Shown: positions 1 to 29,659, counted from the first letter of the stretch. The stretch is 64,000 nt of DNA from Acutalibacteraceae bacterium (GCA_045647405.1 JAZRMI010000007.1:31895-95894); one strand, 5' to 3'. The notes: generated by a model from the sequence alone, not told the origin. Made by a program: numbers and translations.

Positions 1-1399
1 TCTCCTGTAAAACGATACCTAAAGAACGGCGCAAATCAGATTTCTTGATTTTATTGATATTTATACCGTCATATCTGATTTTACCGTCAGCGATATCATA
101 AAAACGGTTAATAAGATTTGTTATAGTGGTCTTACCCGCTCCCGTAGCACCAACAAAAGCAACCTTTTGACCAGGTTCAGCATAAAGGCTTATATCGTGT
201 AAAACTTCTTTACCCTCTTCATAACCGAAGTCAACATTAACCATCCTCACGTCACCTTTAAGTTCTGTATAAGTGAGGCTTCCGTCATTATGAGGATGTT
301 TCCAAGCCCATACGCCTGTACGCTCATCGGTCTCGGTCAAATTTCCGTTACTGTCAACCTTAGCGTTAACAAGTGTAACATAGCCGTCATCAGTTTCAGG
401 CTCAGAATCCATCAAGCCAAAAACTCTCTCAGCGCCTGCAAGACCCATTACAATAGAGTTTATCTGTTGGGACACCTGATTAATATTTCCTGTAAACTGT
501 TTGGTCATATTAAGGAACGGAATTACAATACTGATATTAAATGCCATTCCCGAAATGCTGAAATTAGGAATATCCGATAATAAAAACAATCCACCGACAG
601 TAGCGATTATTACATAAAGTATATTACCGATATTCATATTAATCGGACCTAAAAGATTAGCATAAGCGTGGGCTCTTTTGCTGTCTTCAAAGAGTTCATT
701 ATTAACCTTATCGAAATCAATTTGGCTCTGTTTTTCGTGACAGAAAACCTTTATAACTTTCTGTCCATTCATCATTTCCTGAATAAAGCCCTCTGTCTTA
801 CCGATGGCTTTTTGCTGACGCATAAAATATTTTGCAGAACCGCCGCCCACAATTTTTGTTATATAAAACAGAAGAAATACGCCGAAAACTACAATCAATG
901 TTATCCAAACACTATACCAAAGCATAATCGCAAATACCGAAATTACAATAATTCCCGACTGCAACAACGCAGGTATAGACTGTGAAACCAACTGACGAAG
1001 TGCATCAATATCATTGGTGTAATGACTCATAATATCGCCGTGCTTATTAGAGTCAAAATACTTTATCGGTAAGTTTTGCATACCGTCAAAAAGTGTTTTT
1101 CGCATTTTACCCAAGAAGCCTTGAGTTATATATGCCATAAGTTGTGTATGGGCAAATACCGCCAATAACGATATAACATACAGCGAAGCCAAAATAATTA
1201 TTTTAGGAATAATTATTTCTTTTGCAGATGCCCAGTCACGAGAGATATACCAGTCTTCAATCGAGGCTATTATCTGCTGATTGAATATTGCAGGCAATGT
1301 TGCAACTATTGCCGAAAAGACAATGCAGAATATCGCAACAGGCAACAACACAGGATAATATCCAAATAACATTTTAATCAAGCGTTTGAAAGCCGACAT
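1..1399 (-). CDS. ABC transporter permease/ATP-binding protein, partial (3' end lies beyond the window edge); likely heterodimer partner of the next gene
   Basis: Not in the ORF track because it runs off the window. Manual minus-strand translation from ATG at 1399 gives MSAFKRLIKMLFGYYPVLLPVAIFCIVFSAIV..., a hydrophobic TM half, then Walker A GATGAGKTT (around nt 130-160). An in-frame GTG at 1474 is an alternative start overlapping the upstream stop. Confidence 0.8.
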   Translation of the reverse strand, partial: MSAFKRLIKMLFGYYPVLLPVAIFCIVFSAIVATLPAIFNQQIIASIEDWYISRDWASAKEIIIPKIIILASLYVISLLAVFAHTQLMAYITQGFLGKMRKTLFDGMQNLPIKYFDSNKHGDIMSHYTNDIDALRQLVSQSIPALLQSGIIVISVFAIMLWYSVWITLIVVFGVFLLFYITKIVGGGSAKYFMRQQKAIGKTEGFIQEMMNGQKVIKVFCHEKQSQIDFDKVNNELFEDSKRAHAYANLLGPINMNIGNILYVIIATVGGLFLLSDIPNFSISGMAFNISIVIPFLNMTKQFTGNINQVSQQINSIVMGLAGAERVFGLMDSEPETDDGYVTLVNAKVDSNGNLTETDERTGVWAWKHPHNDGSLTYTELKGDVRMVNVDFGYEEGKEVLHDISLYAEPGQKVAFVGATGAGKTTITNLINRFYDIADGKIRYDGININKIKKSDLRRSLGIVLQE

Positions 1400-24191: not shown

Positions 24192-26126
24192 TTATTTACT
24201 TTTCGCTTTTTTCTTGATTCTTCTTATGATAAGCAAAACAACAAGAACCAACACCGCAACAAGAACCAAAATCACAGCATAAACCACAAGTGCGATTTTA
24301 TTTGGATTTTTTAGTATTTCAATAATATTCTTGCTGTCAGTATCAACCTTTCTGCCCTCAACCTTTGAATAGCGCTCAGGTATTACCGATACCCCGTCAC
24401 CGTTTTTATCAAAAGACTCAAGATAACTTGCAAGCGCAAACCATTCTTTAACCTCATTTCCGTTTTTATCACGGACAATATGTTCTTCAAAATCGGTTAT
24501 AGCATTTCCGTCTTTATCTTTTGGTGTAACACTTAGTATACCCATTGAAGTATCTTCAACAGCACCAAGCATTTGCGCCGAATAAAGACCGGCTACAACT
24601 CTGTAAAGTTTTTCGTCTTCAAGTTTGGTTTCTTTGCCGTTTTCGTCCACCAATTTAACATCGGTAACTCTATTTAATATGAGTCTGTTGGAATTGTATT
24701 CCCACCTTATACCGCTTGGATACAGTTGAGCCGCAGGCATAAGCGCCGAAACAGAAACATCAATCTCAGCAACAGTTTTAAGTTCAGCGCCCGTCAAATA
24801 CACACTAACAAGCGGATAACCTGTAATTCTGTCAGGACCAATTCCTAAACAACTGATATTAAATACATCCCAAACCTTGACTTTTCCTTTTTGAAGTGTG
24901 TCTCGTATTGTTCCGCTCGGCGCAATAGTCAATGCAACTTCTTGATATTTTTCACCCTCTGCCTGTTTAACAGCATATTGATAGGAATCGGCTATAATGC
25001 TTCCCAAAGTATCTTCTTTAAGTTGTTTGCCAAATTCACTTATGGGCGTAAAATCATAATTATTTTCTGCCAACACCTTGTCATAAGTAAGACCGAAATT
25101 TTTCAAATAATGCTCATTTATCATTGAACGGTAAACATCTAATTTTTTATTTATCTGTTCGTTTTCTGCAACTGAAGAATCCACCTTATTCAATTTATAA
25201 CTGTCAAGCGCCCATCTGCCCGACGCATTTTTATAAAGGTTAATTTCACCTAAGTTTCTTCCGTATTCCCCACATGATACAATATATGTATCTCCATACT
25301 TTATAGGTTGACTCAATGTAGTGTGTGTGTGACCACTCACAATCACATCAATTTCAGGCACTTCTTTTGCTAAAATTTCATCTTCTGATTTTTTTGAGTT
25401 TTCATCAGTGCCACTATGAGAAAGGCAGATTATAATATCAACCTTTTCCTCATTTTTTAGTATATCAACAATCCGTTTCGAAGTATCAACAATACTGTCA
25501 AAATCAATATTGCTTGCAGGTGCACATTCCTCGGCATCCTGTCCCACAACGCCATATATACCAAAACGAACACCGCCACGCTCTAATACCGTATATTCTT
25601 TTGCACCATAATTTTCAAGTGCATCTTTAACCAACTTATTATCCTTAGAATTATTTTTGTTCCAATCTATATTTGATATAACAAATTGAGGCATAACCAA
25701 GCCATCATTGATATCATCGTGTAAAATTGCAGAGTTAAGCATATTTGCCACACCCACACTGCGATAATCAAATTCATGATTACCAAAGGTCACAGCGTCA
25801 TATCGCAAATACCCCATCATTTTAAGTTCACTTGCCTGACTTTCGTATACAGTCTGATAAAGTGTTCCCATAGAAAAATCGCCCGCATCAACTAAAACCG
25901 TAGGTTCTTTTCTGTCAAACTTTTGGTCAATCAAAGTTTTCAAACGTGCGAAACCGCCCGCCACTTCACCCGAAACCATCTCGGAATCCATTCGGGAATG
26001 TAAATCGTGTGTAAACAAAACTTTAACGATTTGATGCTTTGATAATGCAGACCAACTTGATACCAAACTCAAGCAAATTGCAAATACCATAACAACAGAA
26101 ATACTTTTTTTAAGAATATTTTTCAT
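24192..26126 (-). CDS. Bifunctional metallophosphatase/5'-nucleotidase with a signal peptide and C-terminal membrane anchor
   Basis: Calcineurin-like motifs (HDLHS, DAGDF, GNHEFD, GHTH), a 5'-nucleotidase C-domain, and a terminal TM helix plus KKKAKSK tail. Confidence 0.85.
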   Translation of the reverse strand: MKNILKKSISVVMVFAICLSLVSSWSALSKHQIVKVLFTHDLHSRMDSEMVSGEVAGGFARLKTLIDQKFDRKEPTVLVDAGDFSMGTLYQTVYESQASELKMMGYLRYDAVTFGNHEFDYRSVGVANMLNSAILHDDINDGLVMPQFVISNIDWNKNNSKDNKLVKDALENYGAKEYTVLERGGVRFGIYGVVGQDAEECAPASNIDFDSIVDTSKRIVDILKNEEKVDIIICLSHSGTDENSKKSEDEILAKEVPEIDVIVSGHTHTTLSQPIKYGDTYIVSCGEYGRNLGEINLYKNASGRWALDSYKLNKVDSSVAENEQINKKLDVYRSMINEHYLKNFGLTYDKVLAENNYDFTPISEFGKQLKEDTLGSIIADSYQYAVKQAEGEKYQEVALTIAPSGTIRDTLQKGKVKVWDVFNISCLGIGPDRITGYPLVSVYLTGAELKTVAEIDVSVSALMPAAQLYPSGIRWEYNSNRLILNRVTDVKLVDENGKETKLEDEKLYRVVAGLYSAQMLGAVEDTSMGILSVTPKDKDGNAITDFEEHIVRDKNGNEVKEWFALASYLESFDKNGDGVSVIPERYSKVEGRKVDTDSKNIIEILKNPNKIALVVYAVILVLVAVLVLVVLLIIRRIKKKAKSK

Positions 26127-26187
26127 ACAAACACTCCTTTATCACCAAAAATATATCATAAATTCAATAAAAATTCAAGTATTGCTA

Positions 26188-26216
26188 TTGACAACCGCCA
26201 TTATTTAGTGTATAAT
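26188..26216 (+). promoter_or_regulatory. Consensus sigma-A promoter for the structured RNA / tRNA-Pro transcript
   Basis: TTGACA (26188-26193), a 17-nt spacer, then TATAAT (26211-26216). Both hexamers match the consensus perfectly. Confidence 0.8.
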
Positions 26217-26274
26217 CAATGCTGTTCGATTGATAAGATTAAGTTGAAACAAATTGAAATTTAATTTAATATTT

Positions 26275-26446
26275 CGAGGTGTGGCGCAGCCCTTAGCACA
26301 CTAGTTTTGGGTGAGGTTGCGAGTGCGTCCAGTGGACGATTCAACGAGCATAACGAAGCGCCGCGGTCAAAATTTATCGACGCTCCAAGGCGAAATAAAT
26401 TTTGGGCACCGCAAGAGGGTTACCAAAACCCTTAAACTAATTGGTC
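26275..26446 (+). ncRNA. Unclassified structured RNA that begins as a tRNA-Pro 5'-half look-alike (not a complete tRNA)
   Basis: 26275-26289 is identical to tRNA-Pro 26466-26480, and 26299-26311 is identical to 26490-26502 (anticodon stem 5' arm plus loop). It then diverges into a visibly GC-richer segment. Nested complementary pairs in that segment: 26304-26310/26423-26429, 26317-26326/26406-26414, hairpin 26327-26337, and 26359-26368/26379-26392. There is no ATG on the plus strand and no 3' acceptor strand. Confidence 0.45.
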
Positions 26447-26465
26447 TTTTTAAACAACTTAACAT

Positions 26466-26541
26466 CGAGGTGTGGCGCAGTTGGTAGCGCACTAGTTTTG
26501 GGAACTAGATGCCGCAGGTTCGAGCCCTGTCACCTCGACCA
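26466..26541 (+). tRNA. tRNA-Pro (anticodon UGG), CCA encoded
   Basis: Cloverleaf read by hand. Acceptor CGAGGTG/CACCTCG, D arm GCGC-AGTTGGTA-GCGC, anticodon arm CTAGT-TTTGGGA-ACTAG (TGG at 26499-26501, G37), T arm GCAGG-TTCGAGC-CCTGT, then A-CCA. Confidence 0.93.
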
Positions 26542-26550
26542 TTTGATTTG

Positions 26551-26598
26551 GTTCTGTTTTTTGAACATTTTTTTCGAAAAACAGAACTTTTTCTTTTT
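26551..26598 (+). terminator. Rho-independent terminator after tRNA-Pro
   Basis: gttctgttttt ... aaaaacagaac stem followed by tttttcttttt. Confidence 0.8.
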
Positions 26599-26651
26599 AT
26601 AAACCCTTTATTTATGCGCATTCACATTCTCCAATCGATTTTTGCTGATTC
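26594..26651 (+). repeat. Flank module copy A (tttttataaaccctttatttatgcg...ttctccaatcgatttttgctgattc)
   Basis: Direct, diverged repeat of 28016-28073 (about two-thirds to three-quarters identical by eye). Its first part (26601-26618) recurs at 29841-29858. Confidence 0.7.
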
Positions 26652-27945
26652 TGAAAAAATTTAAATTTGAAAATAAAAAATTTATTAAGTGCAGCTATAT
26701 CAACACCCCTTTCTCATTTATTCTTGCCATATAATTCCTCAAATCTAACGGGAGATTTAAGTCCTAAAGTGCTATGTGGACGGCGTTCATTATAGAATTT
26801 TATATACTCATCTACCGATTTTTTAAAATCGTTTTCCGAAGTGTAATTTCTCCTATATGCTTCCTCTCTTTTAAAAGAAGCAAAAAACGATTCCATTACA
26901 GCATTATCACAAGGTCTGCCAGAATTAGAAAACGATTGGGTAGCAGAACAATTACTCAAAATTTTTCTAAATGTTTCTGAAATATACTGTGAACCTCTAT
27001 CGCTATGAAACATTAATCCCTCTGGATTGCCTCGTTCTTCAAATGCTTTGCGAAACGATGCAGTAACCAAATTTGTACTACATTTTCTTGAAACTTTATA
27101 TCCAACAACTCTTCGTGAATACAAATCTAATATTACACAAAGATATACTGGATAGTTTTTGAGTTTAAAATATGTAATGTCACTTACCCATTTCTGATTC
27201 ATTCGCTCTGCTTTAAACTCTCTGTTTAGCAAATTACGTTTCATGCGGTCTTTATGCATTCTATAATAACTTTTAGCACCACGTTGAATACTCTCAAGAC
27301 CTAATTCATCCATAATCTTTTTTACTCTGCGTTTGCTTACTATTACTCCGTTCTCAGCTAATACTGCACTAATCTTTGCCGCTCCATACCGTTGTTGTCC
27401 TTCGTCAAAGACCTCTTGTACTTTTAACATTGTTTGTGCTTGTTCTTCTAAAAACTTTGTTCTATCTGCTTTTCTGAAAATATGGTTGTAAAATGTACCT
27501 CTATCCACATTCAAAGCCTCGCACAGTTCACGAACACTATATAATTCTGTTTGCTCATACAACTGTGCAAGAATTCTTAGTCTTTTTTGCAAATCAATTT
27601 CATTAAGCAATTTAGAAAGTTTAATGATTTCTAATAAATGTTGGTTTCTAGCATATTTCCTTTTTAGTTCTTTAAATTCCGATAAAGTAAACTGCTCCTC
27701 CAAAGGTCCATGAATGGTATAATCGTTCACCCAGCGAGCGACTGTTGATACAGCCACATTATATTTTTCCGCCGCAAAAACCAAAGAGTGTTTCTTTTCG
27801 TAGCAAGCTACAACTTGGTTTTTAAATTCCTCGGGATACTGTTTTGACATGGTAAAAACTCCTTTCAATTACTGAAAGTATTTTACCATAATTCTGATTT
27901 TTCAAAAATCAGACCGAATGAAAACCGGAAATCTGACCGATTGGA
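26630..27945 (-). mobile_element. IS3-family insertion sequence (boundaries tentative)
   Basis: Contains the transposase gene. Reading inward, both ends start with TCCAATCG and later share ctgatt(c/t)t(g)aaaaat, but the inverted repeats are imperfect and gapped, and I saw no clear target-site duplication. Confidence 0.55.
26714..27850 (-). CDS. IS3-family transposase, HTH and DDE (rve) domains in one continuous ORF
   Basis: HTH N-terminus (YPEEFKNQVVACY...VAVSTVARWV). The rve core has WVSDITYF, LDLYSRRVVGY, HSDRGSQY and DNAVMESFFASFKRE. Start taken at MSKQY (ATG 27850) after AAAGGAG. Confidence 0.9.
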   Translation of the reverse strand: MSKQYPEEFKNQVVACYEKKHSLVFAAEKYNVAVSTVARWVNDYTIHGPLEEQFTLSEFKELKRKYARNQHLLEIIKLSKLLNEIDLQKRLRILAQLYEQTELYSVRELCEALNVDRGTFYNHIFRKADRTKFLEEQAQTMLKVQEVFDEGQQRYGAAKISAVLAENGVIVSKRRVKKIMDELGLESIQRGAKSYYRMHKDRMKRNLLNREFKAERMNQKWVSDITYFKLKNYPVYLCVILDLYSRRVVGYKVSRKCSTNLVTASFRKAFEERGNPEGLMFHSDRGSQYISETFRKILSNCSATQSFSNSGRPCDNAVMESFFASFKREEAYRRNYTSENDFKKSVDEYIKFYNERRPHSTLGLKSPVRFEELYGKNK

Positions 27946-28015
27946 CTGTTTTTTAAATGCCGATTTCGGAATAAACTTTCGTATTTTGCATACTAAATGC
28001 CGATTTCGGCATTTT

Positions 28016-28206: not shown

Positions 28207-28377
28207 ATGGCAGAATGGAATTGGGAAAAGAACAATGGATTAACTCCTATGGATGTAGCGCCTAATAGTCATAAGAAGGTTTGGTGGAAGTGTAACAAAG
28301 GGCATGAATGGCAAGCTATAATAGGCAATAGACACAAAGGGAACGGTTGCCCCATTTGCAGAAAAGAAAAAAGATAA
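28207..28377 (+). CDS. 56-aa stand-alone Zn-ribbon protein (single DUF4379-type 'probable zinc-ribbon' repeat)
   Basis: Below the ORF-track size cut-off, so translated by hand: MAEWNWEKNNGLTPMDVAPNSHKKVWWKCNKGHEWQAIIGNRHKGNGCPICRKEKR. It has the WWKC-x2-GH ... GCPxC pattern, and GTGAGGTG precedes the ATG. Confidence 0.65.
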   Translation: MAEWNWEKNNGLTPMDVAPNSHKKVWWKCNKGHEWQAIIGNRHKGNGCPICRKEKR

Positions 28378-28405
28378 TAATACTTATATTTAGGTGAAAG
28401 CTTAT

Positions 28406-29659
28406 ATGAACAAAATTACAGAAGTAACACGCAGAGACATCATTGATATTATCCGCAATGGATTTATTGGTACAGAGCTAGAGCTTAAAGTCAATTACTA
28501 CGAACATCCATATCCCGAGGAAGTTACAGTTGACTATCATATGTGTTATCATGGACGTCTCAATGAAATTGACTTTTTATCAAGAGTTTATAATCTTAGT
28601 AATATGCCTTCCACGGACAGTAGATTTAAGGATGCGGAAGGTGATATTTGGCAACATACTATTAATAACGATGATTGGGAAGATGGTTGGGTCTTTACTG
28701 ATCATCGTTTCGGTCTTGTGAACGGCGATGACGAAACGCTATTAAAATTTCTATGTGAAATGTTTCATCCTGTTGTTAGAAACGAACACCAACCCTGGAA
28801 AAAATTCTTGGAAACTTTTAATGAACTTCTAAAGCATGATGGATATGAGATTATAGAAAAAAGTCATATATCCGGACGTTCTGTTTATGGTTGGCAGACC
28901 ATAGTACCAAATACTATTGCCATACCCAAAGCAACAAATCCCACATACGAATTAAAATTAATTGGTGAAGGATCATACGCACAAGTTTTTAAGTATAAAG
29001 ATTCTTTCTATGATACTTTTTTCGTTGTTAAACGGGCAAAAAAAGATTTAACAGAAAAAGAACTAACTCGCTTTAAGCGTGAATACGAACAAATGAAAAC
29101 GCTTCATTCTCCGTATATAGTCGAGGTGTATTCATACAACGGTAGCTCTAACGAGTATGTAATGGAGTATATGGATTGTACTCTCGATAAATATATATCT
29201 GAAAACAATGGAAAACTCACTTTCTCACAAAGAAAAGGTATTGTTTCTCAAATGCTACGAGCATTTAAATACATACACTCAAAAGATTTATTGCACAGGG
29301 ATATTTGTCCCAAAAATGTATTGCTTCGGCTGTATGATGATGTAAGGGTAGTAAAAATTTCCGATTTTGGATTAGTAAAAATACCCGACACAGATTTAAC
29401 ATCTATTAATACAGAATATAAGGGATATTTTAATGACCCTGAACTTCGTTTGGAGGGTTTCAACACATATTGTATAATTCATGAAACCTACGCCATTACC
29501 CGTCTTGTGTATTACGTAATGACAGGTAGAACTAATACCGAAAGAATTGAAAACCCTTCTCTGAAGGAGTTTGTAAAACGTGGACTTTCTTCGGATAAGA
29601 AAAAAAGGTTTCAAGATATCGATGAATTAACATCAGCATTTAACCTAATTCAAGAATAA
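28406..29659 (+). CDS. Cytosolic Ser/Thr protein kinase fused to an about 175-aa N-terminal domain (AbiJ-NTD4-like by recollection)
   Basis: The Hanks kinase motif set is complete: GEGSYAQV (G-loop), VVKRAK (beta3 Lys), FKREYEQM (alphaC Glu), HRDICPKNVLL, ISDFGL and NDPE. No TM or PASTA domains. N-domain motif: IDFLSRVYNLSNMPSTDSRFKDAEGDIWQHTINNDDWEDGWVFTDHRF...LLKFLCEMFHPVVR. Start set at ATG 28406 (AGGTGA 8 nt upstream); the ORF track starts at GTG 28394. Confidence 0.85.
   Translation: MNKITEVTRRDIIDIIRNGFIGTELELKVNYYEHPYPEEVTVDYHMCYHGRLNEIDFLSRVYNLSNMPSTDSRFKDAEGDIWQHTINNDDWEDGWVFTDHRFGLVNGDDETLLKFLCEMFHPVVRNEHQPWKKFLETFNELLKHDGYEIIEKSHISGRSVYGWQTIVPNTIAIPKATNPTYELKLIGEGSYAQVFKYKDSFYDTFFVVKRAKKDLTEKELTRFKREYEQMKTLHSPYIVEVYSYNGSSNEYVMEYMDCTLDKYISENNGKLTFSQRKGIVSQMLRAFKYIHSKDLLHRDICPKNVLLRLYDDVRVVKISDFGLVKIPDTDLTSINTEYKGYFNDPELRLEGFNTYCIIHETYAITRLVYYVMTGRTNTERIENPSLKEFVKRGLSSDKKKRFQDIDELTSAFNLIQE

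Follow-up and report, generated by a model that had tools for sequence, protein, structure and literature searches.

A candidate structured insertion element of Clostridia between a displaced half-tRNA and an intact tRNA-Pro gene

Introduction

Why should a second copy of the 5′ half of tRNA-Pro stand ahead of an intact tRNA-Pro gene? This question is raised by a 64,000-nucleotide stretch of DNA from an Acutalibacteraceae bacterium (GCA_045647405.1 JAZRMI010000007.1:31895-95894), referred to here as the window, in which a promoter is followed by a tRNA-Pro 5′ half, a GC-rich segment and the complete tRNA gene. An initial annotation suggested that the half-tRNA unit might be a scar of site-specific recombination, a tRNA-derived regulatory or decoy RNA, or an RNA class of its own. 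Here we show that the GC-rich segment belongs to a family of structured sequences that adjoin several unrelated genes in Clostridia and are dispersed in many copies in Vescimonas fastidiosa. With moderate confidence we interpret 26312-26429 as a copy of an insertion/repeat element of Clostridia that is structured, non-autonomous and small (~110-125 nt), resembles repetitive extragenic palindromic (REP) sequences and miniature inverted-repeat transposable elements (MITEs), and would be transcribed at this site as a tRNA-Pro leader.

Results

The half-tRNA is followed by a member of a conserved sequence family

The look-alike (26275-26311, + strand) corresponds to tRNA-Pro positions 1-37 with an altered D-loop, and is a displaced 5′ half rather than a tRNA gene. 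It shares 32 of its 37 bases with the real tRNA-Pro (26466-26502). Identity is exact for positions 1-15 (26275-26289) and 25-37 (26299-26311, CACTAGTTTTGGG), the D-arm also keeps TAGC at 26294-26297, and the five differences (TTGG to CCCT, and one G to A) are all confined to this arm. ARAGORN and Rfam both leave the look-alike uncalled and report only the downstream tRNA gene. Nothing in 26275-26465 completes a cloverleaf (acceptor 3′ strand, T-arm; RF00005) at E values up to 10, and the sequence after the element bears no significant similarity to a tRNA 3′ half, with alignment scores no better than those of shuffled sequences (p 0.47-0.85, a range shared with the test of a sister-locus copy described below). 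The annotated view that the unit is neither a complete nor an intron-containing tRNA is thus upheld, as is the observation that the segment is GC-richer than its surroundings (0.44-0.50 against 0.24-0.31 in the flanks).

Homologues were sought with the frame +0 translation of 26311-26484, which was compared by profile-free HMMER with 1.84 billion representative proteins. The matches are spurious open reading frames (ORFs) running through homologous DNA and adjoining tRNAs, and their contigs were then fetched. A profile search of a larger protein collection added P0130-P0132, P0121 and P0127 were discarded as false positives from eukaryote-like repeat proteins, and the frame +2 peptide had no homologues. 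A coding remnant was rejected as the identity of the segment, since the open frames are by-products of its GC content and the protein homologues are such spurious ORFs through tRNAs. Homologues of the element itself are present in loci that we label L011, L012, L013, L014/L015, L016, L017 and L021, the last two from V. fastidiosa.

A covariance model, R1, constructed from a six-sequence alignment (A4), matches the window at 26304-26434 with 138.1 bits, a span that encloses the structured-repeat core at 26312-26419 on the + strand (TGAGGTTGCGAG ... ACCGCAAGAGGG). R1 recovers all copies outside Vescimonas and has no other match in the window or the sister loci. Chance can explain neither the exact 15-mer and 13-mer matches of the look-alike to the tRNA nor the model matches of 110-140 bits in unrelated contigs. 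Strong conservation of both sequence and structure extends over two Clostridia families.

Compensatory changes support two hairpins and make a closing helix plausible

Covariation was tested on 11 distinct copies, those of Vescimonas included, with 500 column shuffles and slid pairings as controls. It can be seen that 94.7% of cells are paired, compared with 84.6% in the column shuffles and 36-54% in the slid controls. Changes on both sides of a pair affect 8 pairs and 22 cells, a level reached in 0/500 shuffles. The window segment on its own folds mildly better than shuffled sequence (z -1.9 and -2.25).

The compensatory changes fall in two hairpins. P2 (26326-26338, + strand; CGTCC-AGT-GGACG) is 100% paired in the 11 copies, with four pair types at pair 24-34 and three at pair 25-33. 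P3 (26363-26412, + strand) is a long hairpin, GCGGT-C-AAAATTTAT ... GCTCCAA-loop apex ... ATAAATTTT-G-GGC-ACCGC, with an invariant base (GCGGT/ACCGC), an AT-rich stem in which four pairs show double changes, and a variable apex. Four helices had been proposed from the window sequence, and the comparison sustains two of them, the GTCC-AGT-GGAC hairpin within P2 and the outermost helix GTTTTGG/CCAAAAC. The other two, TTGCG(A)GTGC/GCACCGCAA (inner part) and CGCC..GCG(G)TC/GACGC..GGCG, are not kept in relatives and were rejected; P3 takes the place of both.

The outermost helix, P0, joins the element to the look-alike. Its 5′ strand, GTTTTGG (26304-26310, + strand), is formed by look-alike tRNA positions 30-36, and its 3′ strand, CCAAAAC (26423-26429, + strand), lies in a conserved motif after the core (GGTTACCAAAAC), of which the three tRNA-Pro-type copies share the form G(T/C)(T/G)ACCAAA(A/G)C. 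The pairing is GUUUUGG/CCAAAAC in the window, GCUUUGG/CCAAAGC in L011 (both sides changed) and GUUUUGG/CCAAAGC in L016 (one U-G), as read by eye, without statistics, in three DNA copies and by back-reading of two peptides. The compensatory change in these tRNA-Pro-type copies makes the helix plausible. G-U pairs are almost lacking from the supported helices, and one-sided changes do not occur in them at all; this hints, if weakly, at selection of the hairpins as DNA.

The element adjoins truncated copies of unrelated genes

At every locus outside Vescimonas the element abuts a truncated gene copy, and an intact copy of the same gene lies within 30-850 nt. L011 is of the window type, with the element after a tRNA-Pro 5′ half, and L016 presents a tRNA-Pro look-alike, the element, a duplicated leader and the full tRNA-Pro in that order. 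In L014 (8043-8392; the same in L015), two perfect 162-nt tandem units, each composed of a 27-nt leader, tRNA-Leu positions 1-22 and an element variant lacking TGAGGTT, precede a further leader with tRNA-Leu(UAG) and then tRNA-Val. This array, present in two metagenome assemblies independent of each other, lies among core genes (ligA / ffh-rpsP) and looks like a recent amplification by unequal crossing-over or repeated insertion. L013 has the opposite polarity: a full tRNA-Met with its terminator and a short hairpin precede the element, and a displaced tRNA-Met 3′ half (A35 to CCA) follows it. The target in L012, the single locus matched in a metagenome pattern scan, is a protein-coding gene; the element is found between a ribosome-binding site with ATGAAAGCAACAGGT and a decayed abrB-like remainder, and an intact abrB-like gene with the same leader lies ~850 nt downstream.

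These loci share several features of their junctions. The element is sense to the target gene in all four gene targets (tRNA-Pro, tRNA-Leu, tRNA-Met and abrB-like), and its 5′ junction follows GG or GGG throughout (TTTTGGG/T, GTTGGG/T, ACAGG/T, with the slash marking the junction). The duplicated part of the target measures 37, 37, ~42, 49 and >60 nt; its start coincides with tRNA position +1 for the window and L011, its end with CCA for L013, and leader sequence is included in L014, L016 and L012. Partial and complete tRNA copies stand as direct repeats around the insert, 26275-26311 and 26466-26502 in the window and likewise in L011, L014, L016 and L013. No short target-site duplication is seen at the junctions, which also lack clear terminal inverted repeats like those expected of a MITE; the only terminal complementarity is the 7-8-nt GTTTTGG/CCAAAAC, which overlaps the tRNA-derived part.

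Look-alikes equivalent to that of the window also occur in L011, L016 and L004. Half-tRNA divergence is confined to the D-arm/D-loop in the window (26290-26298), L011 (167-171), P0128 and L016, with different changes in each. The acceptor strand and anticodon arm are identical to the tRNA in all four lineages, and neutral decay does not explain this pattern.

The look-alike of L016 also bears a second insertion of ~108 nt (L016:7905-8012) in its D-loop, between G19 and position 21. This insertion has GCGCCCCAAGCGAG in common with the apex of P3 and is not detected by R1, and it may be a nested, divergent relative.

The relative in Vescimonas is a multi-copy intergenic repeat

In blastn searches the L013 copy matches NZ_AP023416.1 (V. 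fastidiosa MM35 pMM35_01), an 861-kb replicon, at 18 places, and the Vescimonas copy matches its own replicon at 24. We surveyed 240 kb of this record (L017-L021) with R1 and found five full copies at 51-60 bits and three weaker relatives, in which the likeness is confined to the 5′ module with P2; the window has one copy in 64 kb. All eight matches are intergenic and on the same strand, one copy is antisense to both neighbouring genes, and none lies in two chunks rich in integrative and conjugative elements. The five full copies are near-identical, and the sequence outside the unit is unrelated.

Each full Vescimonas copy sits in the loop of a REP-like hairpin, right after TGGG, in the arrangement GGGCCGATG-TGGG/element/CATCGGCCC-CTACG, with CCCCTACG after the hairpin. 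The same hairpin is also found empty of the element, its loop then being TGGG or TAGG, and its stem covaries between copies (GGGACGATG/CATCGTCCC). The palindromic stem with GTAG/CTAC surrounds all Vescimonas copies and is absent from the window and from L011-L016.

A second type of Vescimonas repeat (L021:15303-15421, 2346-2431 and 1869-1954) has only the 5′ module (GCGAAGCGC, CTGCC-AGT-GGCAG and GAAGAAGCGAG) in common with the element and differs in its 3′ half, which points to REP-associated repeats that form a modular family. Among the genes of the record, which bears the label 'plasmid pMM35_01', are recA, rpoB/rpoC, the S10-spc-alpha ribosomal operons, dnaB, infB and several aminoacyl-tRNA synthetase genes; these core genes indicate a chromid or a piece of the chromosome and not a plasmid.

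The unit is specific to the lineage and probably lies within a tRNA-Pro transcription unit

The look-alike had been suspected of marking an insertion, and tRNA-Pro loci of relatives bear this out. In L004 (region 116-330, minus strand), with a nucleotidase 84% identical, the promoter is followed by a 5′ look-alike, ~170 nt and the full tRNA-Pro. The look-alike of L004 is normal in its D-loop, has a single mismatch and carries an extra TT in the anticodon loop, where it ends, like that of the window. The L004 insert is not homologous to that of the window and has hairpins AAACCC/GGGTTT and GGTCAAA/TTTGACC. A decayed element was rejected for it, as R1 gives no signal even with filters off, and a full-length pseudo-tRNA was rejected for L004 copy A on the shuffle scores given above. 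In L002 and L010, which are more distant relatives, one plain tRNA-Pro follows its own promoter and there is no look-alike. Taken together, the plain loci and the non-homologous L004 insert indicate that the unit is lineage-specific and behaves as an insertion. Relatives with nucleotidases 82-87% identical also keep the promoter and the tRNA-Pro 5′ end (L001 and L005; also L006 and L007-L009). L006, a truncated contig, was the one match of the promoter pattern in a scan of genome contigs. The contigs of these relatives (L001, L005-L009) break inside the tRNA 5′ half and are uninformative on this point, because tRNA sequences common to several species break metagenome assemblies.

The features that frame the look-alike are present as annotated. 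A sigma-70-type promoter, TTGACA-17-TATAAT, lies at 26188-26216 on the + strand with a 12/12 consensus match, and is kept in L001, L004, L005 and L006, each with a tRNA-Pro 5′ end after it. The 58-nt AT-rich leader that separates it from the look-alike (26217-26274, + strand) is only partly alignable with the sister loci. An AT-rich spacer (26430-26465, + strand), the last ~25 nt of which align with L004, leads to the intact tRNA-Pro(UGG) at 26466-26541 (+ strand; ARAGORN; Rfam RF00005, 67.4 bits), and a hairpin and T run resembling an intrinsic terminator follow at 26550-26588 (+ strand). Between the element and the real tRNA there is no promoter-like site, which makes read-through from 26188 the likely origin of the tRNA and the proposed co-transcription of the unit with tRNA-Pro plausible.

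Neither the window segment nor its relatives could be assigned to a described family. At E values up to 10, the real tRNA is the only match to an Rfam 15 family within 26100-26700, in agreement with the annotated lack of any known riboswitch or ribozyme consensus. Rfam 15 at gathering threshold (window) and at E values up to 10 (window, L011, L012, L013 and L017 copies) returns only tRNAs and noise. Blastn of the window unit against phages and plasmids matches in the tRNA part only, element and junction patterns have zero matches in IMG/VR and in blastn against phages, and literature searches with the conserved sequence strings of the element produced nothing relevant.

Discussion

How could an element of this kind come to lie behind half a tRNA? 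We propose that it lands 3′ of GG or GGG, typically in a hairpin loop, which here would be the tRNA-Pro anticodon loop after G37. Insertion into dispensable intergenic hairpins would be the simple case. Interruption of an essential tRNA gene would be lethal, so insertions are seen only where an intact target copy adjoins the interrupted fragment, and this would account for the half-tRNA look-alike. The resulting order would be promoter, displaced 5′ half, element, spacer and intact tRNA. The strong promoter would transcribe look-alike, element and tRNA as a single precursor, from which RNase P, cutting at 26466, would free a normal tRNA-Pro and leave the half-tRNA-element RNA as a by-product with presumably no function for the host. 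The partial duplication itself may have arisen when an insertion hit a transient tandem duplication that was later trimmed, through recombination of a small circle carrying target homology, or by template switching at (T)GGG microhomology. The conserved hairpins would most likely serve as recognition features for the machinery that spreads the element.

Several points weigh against interpreting 26312-26429 as such an insertion element. No transposase or integrase could be tied to it, although no search aimed at RAYT or TnpA was made, and neither target-site duplications nor clear terminal inverted repeats were found. The window and each locus outside Vescimonas are single sites, so that mobility in Lachnospiraceae is proposed from the differing targets only. 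The proposal leaves without explanation why an exact 5′ (or 3′) gene fragment accompanies an intact copy, for which we infer survivorship. In addition, the acceptor strand and anticodon arm of the look-alike are identical to those of the functional tRNA in the window, L011, L016 and P0128, with changes in the D-arm only, and P0 covaries with tRNA position 31. D-arm-only divergence and P0 covariation suggest selection on the chimeric RNA itself.

These last observations raise the alternative that the promoter-proximal half-tRNA and the element together form a selected, functional chimeric non-coding RNA made from the tRNA-Pro precursor. Such an RNA could have a regulatory, decoy or processing role on a tRNA scaffold, or could combine guide and scaffold for a protein whose gene lies elsewhere. 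Besides the unchanged positions 1-15 and 25-37 and the use of positions 30-36 in the covarying P0, this would fit the sense orientation in all four gene targets, the strong conservation in two Clostridia families and the strong promoters that stand immediately ahead of the units (TTGACA-17-TATAAT for the window, L011 and L016, and the near-consensus TTGACT-17-TAAAAT for L014). However, the attached fragment varies between tRNA-Pro, tRNA-Leu, tRNA-Met and abrB and is absent from the multi-copy intergenic repeat of Vescimonas, which also speaks against the annotated idea of a tRNA-Pro-specific or tRNA-derived RNA class. The sister species represented by L004 has a look-alike without the element, and no conserved partner gene was found. 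Furthermore, the near absence of G-U pairs and the lack of one-sided changes in the supported helices are unusual for a selected RNA fold, and a guide with this match would target an essential tRNA gene of the cell itself. The annotated decoy or regulatory role has gained no direct support, and we regard a functional chimeric RNA as unlikely. Partial and complete tRNA copies around integrated DNA are a known signature of integration (bioRxiv 10.1101/2022.07.05.498093), and the geometry of the window fits this signature. Under such a scenario an element with the tRNA-Pro 5′ half in its attP would have recombined in the anticodon loop, giving attL and attR copies, and would later have been mostly deleted, leaving the conserved arm that flanks the att site. 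The look-alikes of the window and L004 both stop in the anticodon loop and carry different inserts, the duplicated tRNA-Met 3′ half of L013 lies beside island-like genes (a capsid fragment and McrBC), and the downstream flank of the window is also island-like, with an IS3-family gene and an AbiJ-kinase gene. Against this, there is no integrase near any copy (window neighbours and the annotation of L013, L014 and L016), and the 'islands' between the repeats measure just 113-190 nt in five loci and are not of kilobase scale. The duplication of the 5′ half in the window reverses the usual 3′ rule, the breakpoints vary by locus (position 37, 31, 22 and abrB codon 5), and integrases that differ in target, four in all, would have to use one and the same arm. 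The copies in Vescimonas are not flanked by repeats, and no match was found in IMG/VR or among GenBank phages. The annotated recombination scar therefore keeps its geometry but lacks the integrase and the usual duplicated part, and we consider it distinctly unlikely.

The positions of the insertions also recall those of introns. A remnant of RNA-mediated insertion would have entered exposed RNA loops (anticodon loop, D-loop, REP hairpin) and been fixed by reverse transcription and recombination. L012 and L013 do have a 5′ part - element - 3′ part geometry, the site after position 37 and the pairing to the anticodon loop resemble tRNA introns, all four gene targets are read in the sense orientation, and (T)GGG microhomology is present at the junctions. 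Mature tRNA ends also mark bounds of the duplications, +1 in the case of the window and L011 and the CCA end in that of L013, but the duplications in L014 and L016 take in leader sequence. At 111 nt the element is far below the size of a group I or group II ribozyme, with no Rfam intron or ribozyme match, and the interrupted copies appear to be dead. In Vescimonas, one copy runs antisense to both of its neighbours, and there is no reverse transcriptase among the neighbours annotated by Pfam or RefSeq (window, L013, L014, L016 and L017-L021), most of the window not having been scanned. We therefore find this origin very unlikely. A broader possibility, which we rate as quite improbable, is that the element is a small mobile structured nucleic acid that targets exposed hairpin loops (anticodon and D loops of tRNAs, loops of REP sequences) by way of an RNA or single-stranded-DNA intermediate, the fused gene fragment being a guide, homology arm or decoy and not debris. 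If the fragment were part of the biology of the element in this way, the promoter-driven half-tRNA-element transcript would be a functional chimeric RNA from tRNA precursors. HDV-like, hammerhead, twister and hatchet ribozymes, retron msr/msd, an attC site, a CRISPR repeat and omega-RNA were also considered and are unsupported, with no Rfam match, none recognised by eye, and no reverse transcriptase or nuclease gene annotated beside any copy.

If the element is, as we favour, a structured insertion/repeat element, it can be compared with REP sequences, bacterial interspersed mosaic elements (BIMEs) and REPINs, extragenic palindromes mobilised by RAYT (a Y1 HUH transposase). Like these it is short, non-coding, intergenic, strand-biased and, in Vescimonas, multi-copy, with a hairpin kept by compensatory change. 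REP sequences were reportedly found at the join-points of tandem duplications by Shyamala, Schneider and Ames in 1990. A stem followed by CTAC (GTAG on the opposite strand) is a hallmark of REP sequences, and the Vescimonas element is enclosed by just such a hairpin followed by CTAC. In contrast to the simple 20-40-nt palindrome of REP sequences, the core of the element is a ~110-nt multi-helix module, and the copies outside Vescimonas are single-site and without the REP stem and CTAC. Insertion into tRNA genes is not a REP trait either, and a RAYT gene was neither looked for nor found here. Intervening sequences (IVS) of bacterial 23S and 16S rRNA are structured inserts of ~100-150 nt in hairpin loops of stable RNAs, with a sporadic distribution among relatives. 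The element resembles them in size, hairpin-loop site in a stable-RNA gene, sense orientation, closure by a host helix and sporadic distribution. However, RNase III excises an IVS and the fragmented rRNA works, whereas the interrupted tRNA copies described here are truncated and non-functional and an intact copy is needed.

The likeness to the partial tRNA copies of attL/attR sites lies in the partial and complete direct repeats that bracket foreign DNA and in the breakpoint in the anticodon loop. It does not extend to the insert, which is ~150 nt here and has no integrase, or to the duplicated part, which is the 5′ half and not the 3′ part; the same insert also occurs at non-tRNA sites and, in Vescimonas, without duplication. 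Group I introns of bacterial tRNAs share the anticodon-loop position and the sense orientation, but the element is half the minimal ribozyme size (~111 against ~200 nt or more), has no RF00028 match at E values up to 10 and no 3′ exon in the window, and the host copy is not a functional split gene. IS1397 and ISKpn1 (IS3 family), which insert into REP loops, and Rickettsia palindromic elements (RPE) are precedents for hairpin-loop-targeted insertion into palindromic units, RPE being small palindromic elements tolerated inside genes and stable-RNA genes. The element differs from these in being non-coding, in lacking the TG...CA inverted repeats and 3-4-bp duplications of the IS3 type, and in having no sequence relation to them.

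With no Rfam 15 match and with its conserved strings absent from the literature searched, the family is apparently undescribed. It belongs to a known broad kind of bacterial interspersed structured repeats (REP/BIME, MITE, RPE, rRNA IVS), from which it is set apart by its multi-helix conserved core, its targeting of tRNA-gene loops and its gene-fragment chimeras. These results define a covariation-supported element family in gut and rumen Clostridia and indicate that small repeats can interrupt tRNA genes at loops, leaving half-tRNA chimeras that annotation tools ignore or misread. An interrupted fragment beside an intact neighbour offers a tractable case for the survival of hits in single-copy essential RNA genes, and allows one to ask whether chimeric leaders affect tRNA maturation. 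Movement through RNA or folded single-stranded DNA, or a function of the fused fragment, would be of considerably greater importance if true.

In the window, the genes that flank the unit encode a 5′-nucleotidase, DnaB_2/DnaI-like proteins, MnmG and ClpC. The best protein matches of the nucleotidase point to a Lachnospiraceae-like Clostridia genome. Pfam matches among the neighbours comprise an IS3-type DDE transposase, an AbiJ-kinase and otherwise housekeeping genes. The IS3-family transposase ORF (HTH_21, rve, rve_3) lies at 26714-27868 on the - strand, ~170 nt past the tRNA-Pro terminator. No link between this ORF and the structured element was found, and the two are probably unrelated. At 28394-29659 (+ strand) an AbiJ_NTD3 domain is fused to a Ser/Thr protein kinase, forming a candidate anti-phage defence gene, which is preceded at ~28208-28378 by a short Cys-rich (zinc-ribbon-like) ORF. 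The IS3-family ORF and the AbiJ_NTD3-kinase gene suggest a variable island adjoining tRNA-Pro. Just upstream of the IS3-family gene, a 16-nt direct repeat (TAAATGCCGATTTCGG) occurs in two copies 40 nt apart (27954-27969 and 27994-28009) and may be part of an insertion-sequence end or a regulatory site.

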